Assembly (NCBI RefSeq): GCF_035999195.1
Contig: NZ_DASYGY010000004.1
Span: 58,827-122,826 of the forward strand
Direction of reading: 5' to 3'
DNA: 64,000 nt
Source of the DNA: Pseudoxanthomonas sp.
Lineage (GTDB): Bacteria > Pseudomonadota > Gammaproteobacteria > Xanthomonadales > Xanthomonadaceae
The notes under the pieces were generated by a model. It was not told the origin of the DNA. It saw only the letters and a list, made by a program, of their open reading frames with translations, and searched no databases. The position numbers and the translations under genes were made by a program. Position 1 is the stretch's first letter, and every line of letters begins with the position of its first letter. Below, piece by piece: positions 2,839 to 57,102 of the stretch.

Positions 2839-3064
2839 GGGGATCTCCTGCGGGGTCCGCGGACGGGCGCGGACGGGTTCGGGCCGGGACGGCCACCACG
2901 ATTGGGGTAAACTGGGGCGTTCCGCGACCTTTATCAAGGGTTTCCAGGTGGTCGCGCAACCCGGCACAGGGGGCGCAGTGTGCGACGCCGGTCAGGCCGT
3001 TGCAAGCACACCCACCGCATTCATACGAGACGCGCGCGGAACACAGCGACGCAAAGAAGAAGGC

Positions 3065-4759
3065 ATGAGCGACAAACCGTTAACCGATATCACGTTCTCC
3101 TCGTTCGACCTGCATCCGGCGCTGCTCGCCGGCCTGGAAGGCGCAGGTTTCTCCCGTTGCACGCCGATCCAGGCGATGACGCTGCCGGTGGCCCTGAAGG
3201 GCGGCGACGTCGCCGGCCAGGCGCAGACCGGCACCGGCAAGACGCTGGCCTTCCTGGTCGCGGTGATGAACCGCCTGTTGACCCGCCCGGCGCTGGCCGA
3301 CCGCAAGCCGGAGGATCCGCGCGCGCTGATCCTGGCGCCGACCCGCGAACTGGCCATCCAGATCCACAAGGACGCGGTGAAGTTCGGCGCCGACCTCGGC
3401 CTGCGCTTCGCGCTGGTGTACGGCGGCGTGGACTACGACAAGCAGCGTGAACTGCTGCAGCAGGGCGTGGACGTCATCATCGCCACGCCGGGCCGCCTGA
3501 TCGACTACGTCAAGCAGCACAAGGTGGTCAGCCTGCACGCCTGCGAGATGTGCGTGCTGGACGAAGCCGACCGCATGTTCGACCTCGGCTTCATCAAGGA
3601 CATCCGCTTCCTGCTGCGCCGCATGCCCGAGCGCACCACGCGGCAGACGCTGCTGTTCTCGGCCACGCTGTCGCACCGCGTGCTGGAACTGGCGTACGAA
3701 CACATGAACGAGCCGGAGAAGCTCGTCGTCGAGACCGAGTTCATCACCGCGGCCAAGGTGCGGCAGAAGCTGTACTACCCGGCCGACGAAGAGAAGATCC
3801 CGCTGCTGATCGGCCTGCTGTCGCGCAGCGAAGGCGCGCGCACGATGGTGTTCGTCAACACCAAGGCGTTCGTCGAGCGCGTGGCGCGCGCGCTGGAGCG
3901 GGCCGGCTACCGCGTGGGCGTGCTGTCCGGCGATGTGCCGCAGAAGAAGCGCGAGTCCTTGCTGAAGAAGTTCCAGGCCGGCCAGCTGGAACTGCTGGTG
4001 GCGACCGACGTGGCCGCGCGTGGCCTGCACATCGACGGCGTGTCGCACGTGTTCAACTTCGACCTGCCGTTCGATGCCGAGGACTACGTGCACCGCATCG
4101 GCCGTACCGCGCGCCTGGGCGCCGAGGGCGACGCGATCAGCTTCGCCTGCGAGCGCTATGCGATGTCGCTGCCGGACATCGAGGCCTACATCGAGCAGAA
4201 GATCCCGTCCGAGCCGGTCACTGCCGAACTGCTGACGGCGCTGCCGCGTCCTGAGCGTCCCAAGCCGGCCGCCGGCGAGGGCGACGGCGAAGAGGAGAGC
4301 GTCAGCCAGATCTTCCGCGAAGCGCGCGAGCAGAAGGCCGCCGACGAGGAGCGTCGTGGCGGTGGTCGCAAGCCGGGTGGCTCCGGCGGCGCGGGTCGCC
4401 GCGAGGGTGCTGGCCGCCGCGAGGGCGGTCGTCGCGAAGGCCCGCGTTCGGCCGACGGCAAGCCGCGTCCGCCGCGCGCGCCGCGTCCGGAAGGCGAAGC
4501 GGCCAGGCCGCAGGTAACGCGCCCGACGAACGAAGAAGTCCGTGCCGACGCGGTCGCGTTGCCGGAAGGCGAACGCAAGCCGCCGCGCAAGCGTCGTCGC
4601 CGTCGCCACGGCAAGCCGATCGAAGGCGCGGAGGCGGCGATCGCGAATGCGGCACCGGCCGCCGCCAAGCCGGCACCCGCGCCGACGCCGGCCGACGACA
4701 ATACGGGCTTCCTGACCCGACTGGGTCGCAAGATCCGCTCGCTGGTGTCGGGCGGCTGA
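3065..4759 (+). CDS. rhlB: DEAD-box RNA helicase RhlB
   Basis: [29 protein letters not shown] motifs; MSDKPLTD N-terminus; divergent from trxA. Confidence 0.95.
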
Positions 4760-51525: not shown

Positions 51526-51557
51526 AAAAAAAAGGGGCGAGCCGAAGCTCACCCCTT
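51526..51557 (-). terminator. Intrinsic terminator of rtcB, overlapping its stop codon
   Basis: aaggggtgagc-ttcg-gctcgcccctt then a T tract on the minus strand. Confidence 0.8.
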
Positions 51558-52772
51558 GATGCACACCACCTGGCGCAGCGTGTGGACGATCTCCACCAGG
51601 TCGGACTGCGCGGCCATGACCGCGTCGATGTCCTTGTAGGCGGCCGGCGACTCGTCGATCACGCCGGCATCCTTGCGGCATTCGACGTGCGCCGTGGCCT
51701 CGCGGTGCTGCGACAGCGTGATCTGCTGGCGCGCGGCGGTACGGCTCATCACGCGGCCTGCCCCGTGGCTGCAGCTGTGGAAGCTGTCCGCGTTGCCCTT
51801 GCCGCGCACGATGAAGCTCTTCGCGCCCATGCTGCCGGGGATGATCCCCAGTTCGCCTGCGCGCGCGCTCACCGCGCCCTTGCGCGTCACCAGCAGGTCC
51901 ACGCCGCCGTGCGTTTCCTTCTGCACGTAGTTGTGGTGGCAGTTCACCGCCATCTTCTCCAGCTGGAACTTCGGCAGGCGGTGGCGCATCTCCGCCAGTA
52001 CGCGCGACATCATCGCTTCGCGGTTCTCGCGGGCGTAGTCCTGAGCCCACGACACCGCTTCCACGTAGTCGTCGAACAGGGGCTCGCCTTCCATGAAGAA
52101 GGCCAGGTCCTTGTCCGGCAGGTGGAAGCCCAGCACACGGTGCGCCAGTTGCTCGCGCGCCCGCTCGATGAAGTAGTTGCCGATCAGGTTGCCGGTGCCG
52201 CGCGACCCGCTGTGCAGCATCACCCACACGGCATCGCTTTCGTCGAGGCAGAGCTCGATGAAGTGGTTGCCGCCGCCCAGTGTGCCGATCTGGCGATCCA
52301 GCTTGTCGGTACGGATCCTGCGGTGCTTCTCCTTGATCACGTCGAGTCGCTCGGCCAGCCCCGACTGCGCGATGCGCGTGCCGATGCTGTCCGGCAGCTT
52401 CCAGTGCTCGCCGCCACGGCCGTTGCCGACCGGCACGCTGCGCTCGATGCCCGAGCGCAGTTGCGCCAGGCTGTCGGGCAGGTCCTTCGCGCGCAGCGTG
52501 GTGCGCACCGCGGCCATGCCGCAGCCGATGTCCACGCCGACCGCCGCCGGGATGATCGCGCCGCGGGTCGGGATGACCGAACCCACCGTCGCACCCTTGC
52601 CCAGGTGCACGTCGGGCATCACCGCGACCCACGGCCCGACGAACGGGATGGAGGCGATGTTTTGCAGCTGCTCGTGGGCCTGCTGTTCCAGCGGCACGCC
52701 GCGCACCCAGCCCTTGATCGGCGTGGTGCTGCCCTCGGCGTGCAGCAGTTCGAATCGGGATTGCATGTTCAT
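51549..52772 (-). CDS. rtcB: RNA 2',3'-cyclic/3'-phosphate-5'-OH ligase RtcB
   Basis: MPDVHLGKG, AVGVDIGCG, GTLGGGNHFIE, MLHSGSRG, HHNY, GSMG, CSHGAGR, DESPAAYK. Confidence 0.96.
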   Translation of the reverse strand: MNMQSRFELLHAEGSTTPIKGWVRGVPLEQQAHEQLQNIASIPFVGPWVAVMPDVHLGKGATVGSVIPTRGAIIPAAVGVDIGCGMAAVRTTLRAKDLPDSLAQLRSGIERSVPVGNGRGGEHWKLPDSIGTRIAQSGLAERLDVIKEKHRRIRTDKLDRQIGTLGGGNHFIELCLDESDAVWVMLHSGSRGTGNLIGNYFIERAREQLAHRVLGFHLPDKDLAFFMEGEPLFDDYVEAVSWAQDYARENREAMMSRVLAEMRHRLPKFQLEKMAVNCHHNYVQKETHGGVDLLVTRKGAVSARAGELGIIPGSMGAKSFIVRGKGNADSFHSCSHGAGRVMSRTAARQQITLSQHREATAHVECRKDAGVIDESPAAYKDIDAVMAAQSDLVEIVHTLRQVVCIKG

Positions 52773-52800
52773 GTGTTCACTCCATTGAAAGGATGAAGCC

Positions 52801-52962
52801 CCTTCCCCCGCAAGCGGGGAAGGTCGGGATGGGGGCGAACGGCACCGCAGCGCCGTATCGCGCCAGAGGTTGGGCCGCGTTCCCGCGCTCTCCATGCGCT
52901 GACGCGTGCCATGCTCCGGCGTGCCCCCACCCCAGCCCTCCCCCGTGAACGGGGGAGGGGGC
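52801..52962. repeat. Inverted pair of family C REP-like hairpin elements between slipin and rtcB
   Basis: ccttcccccgcaagcggggaaggtcgggatgggggc (52801-52836) vs gcccccaccccagccctcccccgtgaacgggggagggggc (52923-52962). Confidence 0.6.
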
Positions 52963-52971
52963 AGGTTCCTG

Positions 52972-54090
52972 CTACTTCAACGTCACCAGCTGCTTCAGCA
53001 CGCCATCCAGGCCGCCGAACACGGTGAGCTTGTCGATCTTCTCGGTGACCTTCTCCAGGGCCTCGAGCTCCTTCAGGCGCATCAGCACCGGCGACTCGTC
53101 GATCAGCTTCGCGGTGTTGAGCAGGGAACGCGTGGCGTTCGCCTCCTCGCGGCGGCGGATCACGTTGGCTTGCGCCGTCTTCTCCGCCTGCACCACCCCG
53201 TTGAGGATCTCCTTCATCTCGCCCGGCAGGATCACGTCCTTCACGCCCACGCCCAGCACCTCGACGCCGAAGCCGGTCAACTGGCCGCGCACGTAGGCGA
53301 AGATGTCGGCGTCCAGCGAGGCCTTGTCGCCCAGCAGTTCGTCCAGCGTCCTGGCCGCGACCGCCTTGCGCAGGCCGTACTGCAGCTCGCGGTAGACGAA
53401 GTCGCCGACCTTCGCGACCTTGGTGCGCGCGGCCACCACGTCGGTGACGCGTGTGCTGGCGGCCAGGTTCACGCGCAGGCTGACCTTGTCGCGGGTCAGC
53501 AGCTCCTGGCCCGACACTTCGATCGTCTGCACGCGCAGGTCGACGATGTCCACGACCACGTTCTTCTGGAAATTCCAGAAGGCGTAGGAACCCGCGGACA
53601 ACGTGCGCTCGAGCTTGCCGTCGATGAACACCAGGCCGGCGAACTCCGCCGGCACATCGGCCACCACGGCCAGCTTCGACAACGTGCCCAACTGGCGCAG
53701 GCGACGCGCGACGGCACCCTCGACGTCCAGCGAGGCCAGCGTCACCGCCTGCACCTCGACCTTCACCAGGCCGATCCAGTACAGGCGCCGCGTGCCGGGC
53801 GGCAGCACGTCTTCCAGCTTGCCGTTCTTCAGCACCAGGCCGACCTTGTCCACGCCGATGTCGGCATGCACGAAGACCTCGCCCAGGCGTTCGCCCAGGC
53901 CCGCGATCAGCGCGTCGACGTCATGGCCGGAATACTCCGGCGATGCGATGTTGAAGGTGCGCACCTCGGTCCGACCCATCGGGTCGAACCAGCGGTACAC
54001 GCCGGGTGCGAGCACGCGCTCGAACCGAAGGTTGCGATACACCAGGCCGCGCTCGCCGTCACCGATCACGACCCTCTTGGTCCAGAACAT
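52972..54090 (-). CDS. SPFH/band-7 domain protein (slipin family), no TM segment
   Basis: ERGLV repeats; VDLRVQTIEVSGQELLTRDKVSLRVNL, VKDVILPGEMK, AQANVIRRREE, LKELEALE; AAGGAG RBS. Confidence 0.88.
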   Translation of the reverse strand: MFWTKRVVIGDGERGLVYRNLRFERVLAPGVYRWFDPMGRTEVRTFNIASPEYSGHDVDALIAGLGERLGEVFVHADIGVDKVGLVLKNGKLEDVLPPGTRRLYWIGLVKVEVQAVTLASLDVEGAVARRLRQLGTLSKLAVVADVPAEFAGLVFIDGKLERTLSAGSYAFWNFQKNVVVDIVDLRVQTIEVSGQELLTRDKVSLRVNLAASTRVTDVVAARTKVAKVGDFVYRELQYGLRKAVAARTLDELLGDKASLDADIFAYVRGQLTGFGVEVLGVGVKDVILPGEMKEILNGVVQAEKTAQANVIRRREEANATRSLLNTAKLIDESPVLMRLKELEALEKVTEKIDKLTVFGGLDGVLKQLVTLK

Positions 54091-54457
54091 GGCGTTGTTC
54101 TCCTTGTTGGCTCTGGTGGTTCGATCCGGATCCAACGGATCGCCGCGGTGGATCGAGTCCCGCGACGAACGGTGCCCATCGCGATGCGCGATCGGCGGAA
54201 GAAGGTGGAAACGCCCCTGGACGAGGGCGGTGCGGGCGACCGGCGCTGTCGGCGGACGCATCGCAGCGAGGGCGCAGTCCATGGACTGCGTCGAACGCTG
54301 CGCGCGTCCGCGTCGAGGGCGCGGTGCCGGCACCATCCCCGCTGCGATGCATCGTCTTCCTGCATTCCTTCGCGGAAAGGCGTTGCGCCGCACGGGGCGT
54401 TTCCTGGGGGGACTTTCGTCCCGGTGTCATGACGTGACAGGTCATGTGCCCTTGCAG

Positions 54458-54531
54458 GCGTTGGAGCGGGAATCGAACCCGCGACAGTCGGATTAACCGT
54501 CCGATGCTCTAACCATCTGAGCTATCCAGTG
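54458..54531 (-). tRNA. Aberrant tRNA-like element, Asn-type GTT anticodon (G33, broken acceptor stem, no encoded CCA)
   Basis: TA-GCTC-AGATGGTTA-GAGC-A-TCGGA-CGGTTAA-TCCGA-CTGTC-GCGGG-TTCGATT-CCCGC; acceptor pairs 5 of 7. Confidence 0.7.
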
Positions 54532-54601
54532 GTGGACGAACCGGATTCGAACCGGTGGCCAACGGCATGCGCCGCTGCTCTCCCACGCTGAGCTATCGTC
54601 C
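54530..54601 (-). tRNA. Aberrant tRNA-like element with 4-nt anticodon loop (GCAT), 6-bp acceptor stem and encoded CCA
   Basis: GGACGA-TA-GCTC-AGCGTGGGA-GAGC-A-GCGGC-GCAT-GCCGT-TGGCC-ACCGG-TTCGAAT-CCGGT-TCGTCC-ACCA. Confidence 0.7.
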
Positions 54602-54944
54602 GCTCGAGGAACACCGTCTCCCACGCTTCGGCATACGCCACGGCAGCGCCGCGCGCACCGGACGGGATACAAACCCGTGCCGCTGTCGCGTGTTCGATCG
54701 ATGCTCCGCATTGCCGGCGGTCGCCCACCGGCAATCCGTTCGGGCGCCATGCGCCCTTGTCGGCGTTCTCTCCACGTGCAGCCCGCATCGGGGCATCACG
54801 ACGCAGCGCACATGCGCCAGTCGCAGCCGCGCCCCTGCATCGGGGCGCGCACGCGCGCTACCCGGATGCCCCAGGGCGGAAAAGGATTTCCGTGGTGGAA
54901 AGAGACGAACCTGTTCGATGCATGCGCATCCTCCGCGAACGCTG

Positions 54945-55018
54945 AAAACAAAACGCCCCCGGGACTTGCGACCCGAGGGCGTTCGCGTTCCTCGGGAGAT
55001 CGGGGTGGCCGATCTCCC
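54945..55018 (-). terminator. Attenuator: protector hairpin / antiterminator / intrinsic terminator
   Basis: GGGAGATCGG-ccacc-CCGATCTCCC (55018-54994); CCCGAGG..CCTCGGG (54996-54972); AACGCCCTCGGG-tcgcaagt-CCCGGGGGCGTT-ttgtttt (54983-54945). Confidence 0.75.
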
Positions 55019-55337: not shown

Positions 55338-56390
55338 GTGGCCTCCATATTCTCCGATCCCGCGCTCGACGCGCTGATGCTGCCCTTTGCGCAGGGCCAA
55401 CTCGCCTGGCCCGAAGGTCGGGTCCTGTTCCTGCGCGCGCGCGATGGCGCCGCGTTGCGCCAGTTCCCGCTGCCGCAGCTGGTATGCGAACAGAGTTTCC
55501 GCCCCGATGCCGAACTGCTGGAACGCGCGGGACTGCGCGTGGTGGCCGACGCGGCCGATGACGGTGCGCGCTATCCGCTGGTGCTGGTGTTGCCGCCGCG
55601 CCAGCGCGAAGAAGCGCGCGCGTTGCTCGCGCGCGCCGTGCAACTGGCGGCGCCCGACGGCGTCGTCGTCGCCGCGATGACCAACAACGAGGGCGCCAAA
55701 TCGGGCGAAGCCGACCTGAAGCAACTCGCGGGCCTGGCCGGCACGCTGACCAAGTTCCATTGCCGCACGTTCTGGACGCGCAGGCGCGCGGACAGCATCG
55801 ACGACGCGTTGCTCGCGCAATGGTCGGCGCTGGACGCGCCACGCCGGATCGAGAGTGGCCGCTACCTCAGCCGTCCGGGCGTGTTCGCCTGGAACCGGAT
55901 CGATCCGGCTTCCGCGCTGCTGGTCGAATGCCTGCCGACGGATATCGCCGGACACGGCGCCGACCTGGGCGCGGGATGGGGATTCCTGTCGCTGTCGCTG
56001 CTGGCGCGCAATCCCGCCATCGCCGCGCTCGATCTCTACGAAGCCGAGGCACGCGCGTTGTCGCTGGCCAAGGCGAACCTCGCGGATGCCGGTGCGAGCG
56101 CAACGCTCGATTTCCACTGGCACGACGTCACCGCGGGATTGCCCCAGCGCTACGACTTCATCGTCAGCAACCCCCCTTTCCACACGCAGAGCCGTGCGGA
56201 CCGTCCGGACATCGGCCAGCGCTTCATCACGGCCGCAGCCGCCGCGCTCAAGCCGGGCGGGCGCCTGTGGCTGGTGGCCAACCGCCACCTGCCGTACGAG
56301 CAGACCTTGAACGACCGCTTCGGCGAGGTGCGCGTGGCCGGCGAACGCGACGGTTTCAAGGTCATCGCGGCAACCAGGGCGAGGCGGTGA
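55338..56390 (+). CDS. Class I SAM-dependent methyltransferase, RsmC/RlmG (MTS) family
   Basis: SRPGVFAW.RID.AS.LL, DLGAGWG, NPPFH, LWLVANRHLPYE. Confidence 0.88.
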   Translation: MASIFSDPALDALMLPFAQGQLAWPEGRVLFLRARDGAALRQFPLPQLVCEQSFRPDAELLERAGLRVVADAADDGARYPLVLVLPPRQREEARALLARAVQLAAPDGVVVAAMTNNEGAKSGEADLKQLAGLAGTLTKFHCRTFWTRRRADSIDDALLAQWSALDAPRRIESGRYLSRPGVFAWNRIDPASALLVECLPTDIAGHGADLGAGWGFLSLSLLARNPAIAALDLYEAEARALSLAKANLADAGASATLDFHWHDVTAGLPQRYDFIVSNPPFHTQSRADRPDIGQRFITAAAAALKPGGRLWLVANRHLPYEQTLNDRFGEVRVAGERDGFKVIAATRARR

Positions 56391-56394
56391 GCGC

Positions 56395-57102
56395 ATGAAG
56401 ATCGTCAAGCACATCGCCAACCTGGGCTATGGCAGCCGCAAGCAGGTGCAGTGGATGTTCCGCGAAGGACGCATCACCGACGCTGCGGGCGAGGTGCTGT
56501 ATGCCGACGACCCGGTCGATCACGACAACATCCGGGTCGACGGCGAACCGCTCGATCCCGCACCGGGCCTGGCGATCATGCTGCACAAGCCGGTCGGCTA
56601 TACGTGTTCGACCAAGGACACCGGCCGCATCGTCTACGACCTGTTCCCGCCGCGGTTCCGCGAGCGCTCACCGGTGCTGTCCACGGTCGGACGACTCGAC
56701 CGCGAGACCAGCGGCCTGCTGCTGCTCACCGACGACGGCGGCCTGCTGCACCGGATCATCTCGCCCAAGGCCAACCTGCCCAAGGTCTACGACGCCACGC
56801 TGGCCGAAAACCTGCGCGGCGACGAAGGCGCGCTCTTCGCCAGCGGCACGCTGATGCTGGAATCGGAACAGACGCCGCTGGCACCGGCGCAGCTGCACGT
56901 GATCGATCCGCGGCATGCGCAGCTGACGCTCACCGAGGGCCGGTACCACCAGGTACGCCGCATGTTCGCCGCCGTCGGCAATCACGTGCAGGCATTGCAC
57001 CGCAGCGGCGTAGGCGGGCTGACGCTGGACGGGTTGCCGGAAGGCCAGTGGCGCATCCTCAATGCGGATGACCTGCGCCGGCTGTTCGAGTTCGCCGCAT
57101 GA
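56395..57102 (+). CDS. RsuA-family pseudouridine synthase
   Basis: S4-like N-terminus; HKPVGY, GRLDRETSGLLLLTDDG, EGRYHQVRRMFAAVGN. Confidence 0.92.
   Translation: MKIVKHIANLGYGSRKQVQWMFREGRITDAAGEVLYADDPVDHDNIRVDGEPLDPAPGLAIMLHKPVGYTCSTKDTGRIVYDLFPPRFRERSPVLSTVGRLDRETSGLLLLTDDGGLLHRIISPKANLPKVYDATLAENLRGDEGALFASGTLMLESEQTPLAPAQLHVIDPRHAQLTLTEGRYHQVRRMFAAVGNHVQALHRSGVGGLTLDGLPEGQWRILNADDLRRLFEFAA

Follow-up and report, generated by a model that had tools for sequence, protein, structure and literature searches.

A two-module tRNA-mimic RNA with a closed anticodon loop precedes a slipin-RtcB operon in Pseudoxanthomonas and its relatives

To our knowledge, few natural substrates and partners are known for the RNA ligase RtcB of bacteria. 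As summarized in a preprint (bioRxiv 10.1101/312249), RtcB occurs in some bacteria beside a Band-7 protein and a predicted tRNA-like non-coding RNA, the b7a-tRNA (band-7-associated tRNA) predicted by Burroughs and Aravind in 2016; the same summary adds that the b7a-tRNA/Band-7 pair appears interchangeable with YrlA/Rsr next to RtcB, and that the existence of the b7a-tRNA stood without experimental validation as of 2018. Literature searches returned no later work on the b7a-tRNA; a 2026 paper does no more than note that the rtc locus of Pseudomonas aeruginosa includes an SPFH gene. Tokens of tRNA damage are also read by RtcR, a CARF protein which senses damaged tRNA fragments and induces rtcBA (Hughes et al. 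2020, PMC7790460). The present report deals with a 64-kb stretch of Pseudoxanthomonas DNA (contig NZ_DASYGY010000004.1; hereafter the window, on which all coordinates are numbered), where a tRNA-shaped element with a four-nucleotide anticodon loop, termed module 1, is followed by a second tRNA-like element, termed module 2, by a leader, and by the genes of a slipin (Band-7 protein) and of RtcB, all on the minus strand. A cloverleaf RNA beside a Band-7 gene linked with RtcB is what the preprint outlines for the b7a-tRNA, and the order in the window is exactly so (54601-54462 for the two modules, 54090-52972 for the slipin and 52895-51549 for RtcB), so that the finding rediscovers this class and is not categorically new.

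Module 1 (54530-54601, minus strand) is a real, conserved tRNA-shaped RNA element of 72 bases which cannot decode, because a stable tetraloop takes the place of its anticodon loop. Delineated as a cloverleaf by ARAGORN, by the Rfam tRNA model and by covariation, it reads, from 54602 down to 54530, C GGACGA UA GCUC AGCGUGGGA GAGC A GCGGC GCAU GCCGU UGGCC ACCGG UUCGAAU CCGGU UCGUCC A CCA. The acceptor stem comprises 6 bp (54601-54596 with 54539-54534), all of which covary, instead of the 7 bp of a canonical tRNA, the would-be 1:72 pair being a C.A. The D stem of 4 bp carries a loop with GG, the variable loop contains 5 nt, the T loop UUCGAAU occupies 54551-54545, and the 3' end consists of a discriminator A followed by CCA, this ACCA being encoded in the DNA at 54533-54530. 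The 5-bp anticodon stem (54575-54571 with 54566-54562) is capped by the four nucleotides GCAU (54570-54567), where a canonical tRNA possesses a 7-nt loop with U33 and a 3-nt anticodon. The nucleotides responsible for tertiary contacts are present, i.e., U8, A14, G18G19, G53-C61, T54-A58 and G15-C48. The original prediction, which had described a tRNA mimic with a GCAT loop, a D arm, a T arm, a 6-bp acceptor stem and ACCA at this very place, is confirmed in all these points and the strand is the minus strand. As had been expected, ARAGORN leaves the identity undetermined and returns a tRNA-??? with a 2-nt "anticodon" at 54531-54602. The Rfam tRNA model (RF00005) scores the element at 45.3 bits, above its gathering score of 29 (E = 9e-8 in 3 kb and 2e-6 over the whole window), with four nucleotides aligned to the 7-nt loop of the model; this score, the D and T arms and the elbow nucleotides are those of a canonical tRNA. 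Both programs find a single other tRNA-like match in the 64 kb, an abutting "tRNA-Asn(GUU)" at 54531-54457.

A scan of one genome per species yielded 80 loci with a relative of the slipin in the Lysobacterales, including Pseudoxanthomonas, Luteimonas, Lysobacter, Xanthomonas, Rhodanobacter, Dyella and others. Two T-loop motifs occur 72-75 nt apart upstream of the slipin gene in 77 of these loci, with the order module 1, module 2, slipin and RtcB kept, and at least two of the remaining three have their upstream DNA cut short. A covariance model built from module 1 recovers module 1 at 55-94 bits, and module 2 at 29-50 bits, in every locus with upstream DNA. When aligned with MAFFT, module 1 has 93.1% of its cloverleaf cells paired, as against 27-50% when the partner strand is slid, and compensatory changes affect 16 of its 20 pairs, a result that none of 500 shuffles equalled; all six acceptor pairs and all five pairs of the anticodon stem covary. 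The element is well beyond what chance would produce. The view that selection has kept a tRNA shape irrespective of decoding, put forward from the window alone, is borne out by this pairing and by the length of the loop: when a stem of 5 bp is parsed, 52 of the 77 loci have a loop of 4 nt, 68 have one of 3-5 nt and no more than six have one of 7 nt. Homologues with a normal loop, such as a recent decay or a sequencing error in the window would imply, are thus restricted to these six loci. More than half of the tetraloops (29/52) belong to the GNRA type, i.e., GAAA (12), GCAA (12), GCGA (3), GGGA (1) and GUAA (1), which would account for 1/32 of random tetraloops, while the GCAU of the window is found in 8 loci. 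Single linkage at 80% divides module 1 into 16 or more sequence types, and the closed loop recurs in at least five unrelated types. As judged from these alignments, the closed short loop is a selected feature and the rule among homologues. The likeness of the loop to a cleaved, trimmed and religated product, to which attention had been drawn, is without support because the short loop is encoded in the DNA and conserved across genera, mostly as GNRA.

The junction of the two modules encodes NCCA and one further C in 59 of the 77 loci. Module 1 is often swapped wholesale between close relatives, as exemplified by the window and locus L001, whose modules differ at 31 positions at a four-fold divergence of 10.7%. 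Three loci from metagenome-assembled genomes (L059, L068 and L070) combine a module 1 with a 7-nt loop and a module 2 with a perfect 7-bp acceptor stem (UUUUGGA/UCCAAAA); they resemble genuine tandem tRNA genes and may perhaps represent the ancestral state.

The abutting "tRNA-Asn" is also a tRNA mimic. Module 2 (54462-54528, minus strand), called "tRNA-Asn GUU" and delineated by ARAGORN, by Rfam (49.4 bits) and by covariation, has an acceptor stem of 4 bp only (UGGA/UCCA), devoid of CCA and with the first two acceptor pairs mismatched in the Rfam alignment. Its anticodon-like loop has the usual 7 nt, CGGUUAA (54499-54493). The D arm, the T arm and the UGGA/UCCA stem are near-invariant across genera, even in Photobacterium, and all five pairs of the anticodon stem covary, whereas the entropy profile reveals the loop as a single hypervariable island, with 49 distinct loops in 72 sequences. 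About 25 different "anticodons" are accordingly read by ARAGORN across the loci, under labels as diverse as Asn, Leu, Tyr, Met, Lys, Ile, Gln, Glu, Cys, Pro, Gly, His and even "stop". The frame of the loop is nevertheless kept, with a pyrimidine at position 32 in 63/64, U33 in 47/64 and A37 in 59/64 of the sequences, and many of the loops, e.g., CUGUUAA, CUGUAAA, CUCAUAA, CUUUUAA and CUGAUAA, are identical to real anticodon loops. In pairs of loci with a divergence of 5-10% at the four-fold sites of the slipin gene, the loop diverges by 33% and the body of module 2 by 5%, which makes the loop, at low divergence, about four times faster than the four-fold sites of the adjacent slipin gene, a comparison that is suggestive only and overstates the acceleration because four-fold sites are non-neutral in a genome of 69% GC.

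In a relative of the window organism, low-depth contigs indicate that module 1 is co-transcribed with module 2 and the leader. The RNA in question comes from assembled contigs of three RNA-seq runs, of two coded organisms, which cover the Xanthomonas-type locus L073 at a depth of 3-12. The contigs begin at 2828-2832 of that locus, i.e., at the 5' acceptor strand of module 1 (2825-2831), pass through module 1, module 2 and the hairpin described below into the leader, and end at 3028-3098; along 500 nt upstream of module 1, the same locus shows no contig. As the contigs were aligned over their full length, the 5' boundary is real at this depth. The 130-170 nt upstream of module 1 display covariation at the RNA level and must therefore be transcribed at some point, and this covariation, taken together with the boundary, speaks for 5' processing at module 1 rather than for a promoter there. 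The simplest reading of the boundary, and the one that we infer, would be a processing step of the kind that RNase P performs on tRNA shapes. Of the roles envisaged in the original prediction, i.e., a decoy, a ligand of RtcB or a signal for RNase P/Z, it is that of an RNase P signal alone which this boundary supports, and indirectly so. No sigma-70 promoter was found near module 1. Two further runs (X25 and X26) gave one long contig over the whole region, which is uninformative on the ends, and, among the public runs matched, the sequence of the window organism itself was found in DNA-type metagenome runs only. One such public DNA run contains 100% of the sampled words of 52900-54700, module 1 included.

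On the minus strand, module 1 and module 2 are followed by a non-coding leader of 367 nt, the slipin gene, the RtcB gene and a terminator. The slipin, a Band-7 (SPFH) protein of 372 aa (52972-54090; Pfam Band_7, 3.7e-29; "slipin family protein" in public sources), starts with the ATG at 54090 (MFWTKRVV...), conserved in all loci, and the GTG at 54393, which opens the longest open reading frame (ORF), was rejected as a start on this ground. With this start, module 2 and the gene are separated by 367 nt. Since the first 101 codons of the long ORF belong to the non-coding leader, automatic annotation could hide the leader RNA. By inspection, the slipin is free of transmembrane segments. The SPFH and coiled-coil part of the protein matches proteins that oligomerize into rings or cages, with stomatin, HflK/C and prohibitin as the closest structures and with erlin and flotillin besides, while the predicted structure as a whole is moderate (pLDDT 68) and the 145 N-terminal residues have no informative match. 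The second gene codes for an RNA ligase of the RtcB family of 448 aa (51549-52895; Pfam RtcB, 8.5e-125; NCBIfam RtcB family), and a terminator scan places an intrinsic terminator after it at 51557-51532. A link of module 1 with RtcB had been proposed from the first, and RtcB is indeed the second gene of the operon that module 1 precedes. The "polycistron" of the original prediction has to be understood differently, i.e., not as a cluster of tRNAs but as two tRNA mimics within the structured leader, of about 930 nt, of a protein-coding operon. The slipin gene, module 2 and the existing name b7a-tRNA are additions to that prediction.

Slipin relatives outside the Lysobacterales were retrieved by a tblastn search of plasmid-labelled replicons, at 35-48% identity. 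In Photobacterium (L084, 3677-3818), the tandem again precedes the slipin gene, with a module 1 loop of 6 nt and a module 2 labelled "Met CAU" which shares the T arm of the window. In Burkholderia cenocepacia (L082, 3620-3745), the first module consists of an acceptor stem and a T arm only, and it is the second that has an anticodon stem capped by GAAA. The closed module therefore differs with the lineage, being the second in Burkholderia and the first in the Lysobacterales, and the closing of the anticodon loop of one module is a recurrent event and not a local accident. The Escherichia coli STEC639 replicon (L081, 3680-3830) is organized otherwise: in the annotated table the slipin relative is followed by a nucleotidyltransferase, not by RtcB, a sigma-54-like motif TGGCACGCTTCTCGCA occurs upstream, and the RNA has only a T-arm-like hairpin UGGGUUCGAUUCCCA, with no tRNA detected there by ARAGORN, by Rfam (E <= 0.1) or by the module 1 covariance model. 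This arrangement agrees with the reported swapping of the b7a-tRNA and YrlA-type RNAs. Unlike the E. coli relative, the window offers no convincing sigma-54 motif by eye.

Conservation of the non-coding DNA extends far beyond the two modules, from about 55020 to the start codon of the slipin, i.e., over about 930 nt, and in the leader around the modules more than 100 pairs are predicted, 57 of which show compensatory changes. Rfam 15 holds no family for the class of the modules or for any of the leader domains. Downstream of module 2, a hairpin resembling an anticodon stem-loop (54428-54446, minus strand; CAUGAC / CUGUCAC / GUCAUG) consists of a 6-bp stem and a 7-nt loop. Compensatory changes occur in all six pairs of the stem, which is 93.3% paired overall, and the loop (54440-54434) adopts the form C-U-NNN-A-C/A, most often as CUGUCAC (24), CUUUCAC (10), CUGUAAA (7) or CUGUUAC (6), with CUGUGAA also occurring among the versions of relatives. 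The CUGUCAC loop is that of the tRNA-Asp anticodon, and the mostly G-U-N "anticodons" of the hairpin form the set targeted by Tgt and by nucleases of the colicin E5 type. The 367-nt spacer was also considered as the seat of a small ORF, with the conserved "CATGACC" as a possible start, and this was rejected: GC3 is flat in all frames, no ORF is conserved, and the "CATGACC" motif belongs to the covarying hairpin instead.

The remainder of the 3' leader (54091-54427, minus strand) has no coding signal and is structured, as deduced from RNAalifold, helix counts and conserved blocks. It comprises a GNRA hairpin (54422-54409), an 11-bp long-range helix (54404-54394 with 54217-54207) enclosing a multi-helix domain, and a hairpin at 54164-54144; RNAalifold predicts 64 pairs, 41 of them with a compensatory change. 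The ribosome-binding site forms the end of a single-stranded, near-invariant stretch, GGAUCGAACCACCAGAGCCAACAAGGAG (54127-54100). This stretch contains the letters ACCACCA, which also form the junction of module 1 and module 2 at 54535-54529 (..UCC ACCA C UGGA); the repeat might be meaningful, e.g., as a site bound in both places or as an imitation of the 3' end of a tRNA. On the other side of the modules, the 5' domain adjoining module 1 (54608-54735, minus strand), delineated by alignment and RNAalifold, contains a hairpin AUUGCCGG...CCGGCAAU (54735-54710), a second hairpin at 54678-54662 and an invariant hairpin block at 54661-54630, and its closing helix terminates at GGUGUUCC (54615-54608); 42 pairs are predicted by RNAalifold, 16 with a compensatory change. 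Within the invariant block, GCGGCGCUGCCGUGGC resembles the anticodon arm and variable loop of module 1.

The conserved non-coding region starts with a near-invariant, terminator-like element (54934-55018, minus strand), which opens with a hairpin (55018-54994). Behind this hairpin come a long terminator-like stem bearing a U-rich tract (54984-54945) and then GCGUUCGCG (54942-54934). The latter is complementary to CGCGAACGC at the foot of the stem and can extend the stem or compete with it. Present in 71-77 of the 80 loci at a distance of 330-420 nt before the tRNA mimics, the element hardly varies and shows little covariation; it might serve as an attenuator, represent a small RNA of its own, or be a structural stem whose internal loop is rich in U.

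The window consists of chromosomal DNA with 69% GC, whose genes are closest to those of Pseudoxanthomonas (92% amino-acid identity for a neighbouring protein). A scan of 18 ORFs from about 43 to 63 kb revealed no gene for Rsr (TROVE), RtcR or RtcA and no mobile-element gene, and PADLOC has no model matching the slipin or RtcB. A phage or plasmid origin was rejected, since blastn searches against phages and plasmids matched generic parts of tRNAs only and no relatives of the slipin were found in viral contigs. The neighbours are ordinary housekeeping genes. Among them, a divergent pair at 55338-57102 on the plus strand codes for two RNA-modification enzymes, an RsmC/RlmG-like rRNA methyltransferase and an RsuA-like pseudouridine synthase; the slipin relative of E. 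coli likewise adjoins rluF, and these RNA-modification neighbours are perhaps a coincidence.

From this anatomy, it seems fairly probable that module 1 is part of a two-module tRNA-mimic RNA belonging to a slipin (Band-7)-RtcB repair operon, in which it would act as a non-decoding, nuclease-proof handle. A long structured leader would be transcribed from upstream, and RNase P would recognise the tRNA shape of module 1 and cut at its 5' end. Module 1 would then represent a constant tRNA-shaped part that anticodon nucleases are unable to attack, its elbow, acceptor stem and CCA serving for recognition by partners that bind tRNA, e.g., RtcB, the slipin oligomer or enzymes of processing, in a role analogous to that of the tRNA-like domain of YrlA in the Rsr-RtcB operons. 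Module 2 and the anticodon-like hairpin would expose the fast-changing loops, which could be nuclease targets that RtcB reseals or senses.

Several points weigh against this handle, besides the above-mentioned limit of the rate comparison. The minimum free energy (MFE) fold of the tandem offers an alternative hairpin, UCCA-CCAC-UGGA, although this hairpin is unconserved across the types of module 1. Module 1 is less conserved than module 2, with its numerous types and its wholesale swapping, so that the idea of a constant handle fits at the level of the shape only. The closed loop could reflect a lack of constraint on a part that has no partner, rather than selection for resistance to nucleases. 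The transcripts are low-depth contigs from a relative and not from the organism of the window, and libraries of this kind cannot display a discrete 72-nt species. Finally, the binding of module 1 to RtcB or the slipin and its cleavage by RNase P are putative steps.

Instead of a cofactor acting in trans, the RNA may be a damage sensor acting in cis, a possibility that we consider somewhat unlikely. The mimics and the hairpin would be baits in the leader of their own operon, a cut made by an anticodon nuclease in module 2 or the hairpin would sever or refold this leader and thereby switch on the slipin and RtcB, and the closed-loop module 1 would serve as an uncuttable anchor or as an entry site for RNase P. 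Such a role is suggested by the loop of module 2, hypervariable within a conserved frame and in many loci a copy of a real anticodon loop, and by the loop of the hairpin, mostly CUGUCAC, CUGUAAA or CUGUUAC, which offers the G-U-N anticodon set targeted by the colicin E5-type nucleases. A loop changing faster than synonymous sites and the swapping of module 1 are patterns typical of conflict systems, even if the variability of the loop may equally be a near-neutral drift within a 7-nt frame. The continuity of the modules with the mRNA leader in the contigs of the relative, a leader structured up to the ribosome-binding site, and a terminator-like element at the start of the region would all suit a regulatory leader, in a neighbourhood where none of the 18 scanned ORFs codes for an RtcR, an RtcA or an Rsr that could provide the regulation. 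However, both the cleavage and the induction are hypothetical, PADLOC matches neither protein to a model, and the near-invariance of the body of module 2 points to a surface bound by a protein, in equally good agreement with a cofactor.

An extended version of these ideas, which must be regarded as unlikely, takes the whole region from about 55018 to 54091, some 930 nt, as one large structured RNA undescribed before. Its parts would be a 5' hairpin or attenuator, a junction domain, the two mimics, the tRNA-Asp-like anticodon hairpin, and a domain of about 200 nt closed by the long-range helix. It might constitute an array of baits for anticodon nucleases, the cleavage of which is either sensed in cis or repaired by the slipin and RtcB, with the tetraloop module as the uncuttable anchor.

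A more modest function, the mere punctuation of the transcript, appears quite improbable. The tRNA shapes would recruit RNase P and the 3' enzymes, so as to trim the leader and to release or stabilise the slipin-rtcB mRNA, in the manner of tRNA-like punctuation in other transcripts, the pieces themselves being functionless. The RNA-seq boundary at the start of module 1, the intact elbow, acceptor stem and NCCA, and a module 1 whose shape is kept while its sequence varies are all in line with it. It leaves unexplained why two modules are kept, why the body of module 2 is near-invariant across orders and its loop held in a 7-nt frame, and why GNRA tetraloops are enriched; moreover, the contigs pass without a break from module 1 through module 2 to the leader, so that processing between them is at best partial. 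As for a decayed tRNA pseudogene, an assembly or sequencing error or a leftover of an integration site, to which the lack of an assigned anticodon in ARAGORN and the imperfect acceptor stems could point, it is made extremely improbable by the conservation of the elements in 77/80 loci over many genera with compensatory changes, by the GCAU loop in 8 loci and short loops in 68/77, by the lack of mobile-element genes among the 18 ORFs, and by the public DNA run with all the sampled words of 52900-54700.

The anatomy of the locus makes the predicted b7a-tRNA system directly testable, and the plant pathogens of the genus Xanthomonas, which carry the locus, offer ready genetics for that purpose. 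Should the RNA prove to be a cofactor or sensor of a slipin cage and a ligase, it would link the SPFH cages to RNA repair, in a manner reminiscent of Ro and Y RNAs or of vaults, and would show how bacteria detect or absorb an attack by anticodon nucleases.

Among the known RNAs to which the modules can be compared, the mascRNA/MALAT1-type and viral tRNA-like structures also insert a tRNA shape in a longer transcript, keep the acceptor/T-arm part and the elbow, and have a shrunken or non-canonical anticodon arm; they are recognised by RNase P and CCA-related enzymes and not by the ribosome. They differ from the window modules in being eukaryotic or viral, unrelated in sequence and unlinked to an RNA ligase operon, and the CCA of the window is encoded in the genome. 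The vault particle associates the cage-forming major vault protein (MVP), with its SPFH-like shoulder domain, and a small structured vault RNA. The model of the slipin matches cage-forming SPFH assemblies. The vault is an analogy only; no MVP repeat domain occurs among the 50 matches listed for the slipin, and the vault RNA is not tRNA-shaped. The RtcR system also links tRNA damage to the expression of RtcB (PMC7790460), with a protein sensor and a sigma-54 promoter, whereas the window has no RtcR nearby and carries its tRNA-like parts in the RNA of the operon itself.

Closer to the window are the rsr-yrlBA-rtcBA operons with YrlA (Rfam RF02553) and Rsr (Ro60), in which a tRNA-mimicking RNA, with its mimicry of the T-arm/D-arm elbow, likewise resides beside RtcB; the preprint cites YrlA as a proposed RNA-repair cofactor (bioRxiv 10.1101/312249). 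The tRNA-like domain of YrlA is permuted, its "anticodon stem" running into the Ro-binding helix, whereas the modules of the window are unpermuted cloverleaves, and no Rsr (Ro60/TROVE) gene was found among the 18 ORFs scanned beside them. Membership in the YrlA family was rejected, the RF02553 model reaching 29 bits against a gathering score of 69, a weak match produced where the T arm of module 1 meets the D arm of module 2 that comes after it. A YrlA-like bridging hairpin (UCCA/UGGA), as drawn in the MFE fold of the tandem, was also discarded, since it is unconserved in the types of module 1 ending with ...ACGUCA or ...ACGCCA.

The closest relative remains the b7a-tRNA, which the summary in the preprint describes as strongly resembling an authentic tRNA, as the window modules do, and for which it proposes the part that YrlA plays with Rsr. 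That summary speaks of one tRNA-like RNA, while the window and its relatives have two abutting modules. It speaks neither of a module 1 whose anticodon loop is replaced by a closed tetraloop, mostly of the GNRA type among relatives, nor of a module 2 whose acceptor stem has 4 bp and whose loop is hypervariable, nor of a covarying leader of about 930 nt around the two modules. The closed tetraloop, the tandem, the tRNA-Asp-like hairpin, the long leader and the RNA-seq boundary go beyond what the preprint summarizes for the b7a-tRNA, and of these the closed tetraloop, the tandem and the large leader may be new.

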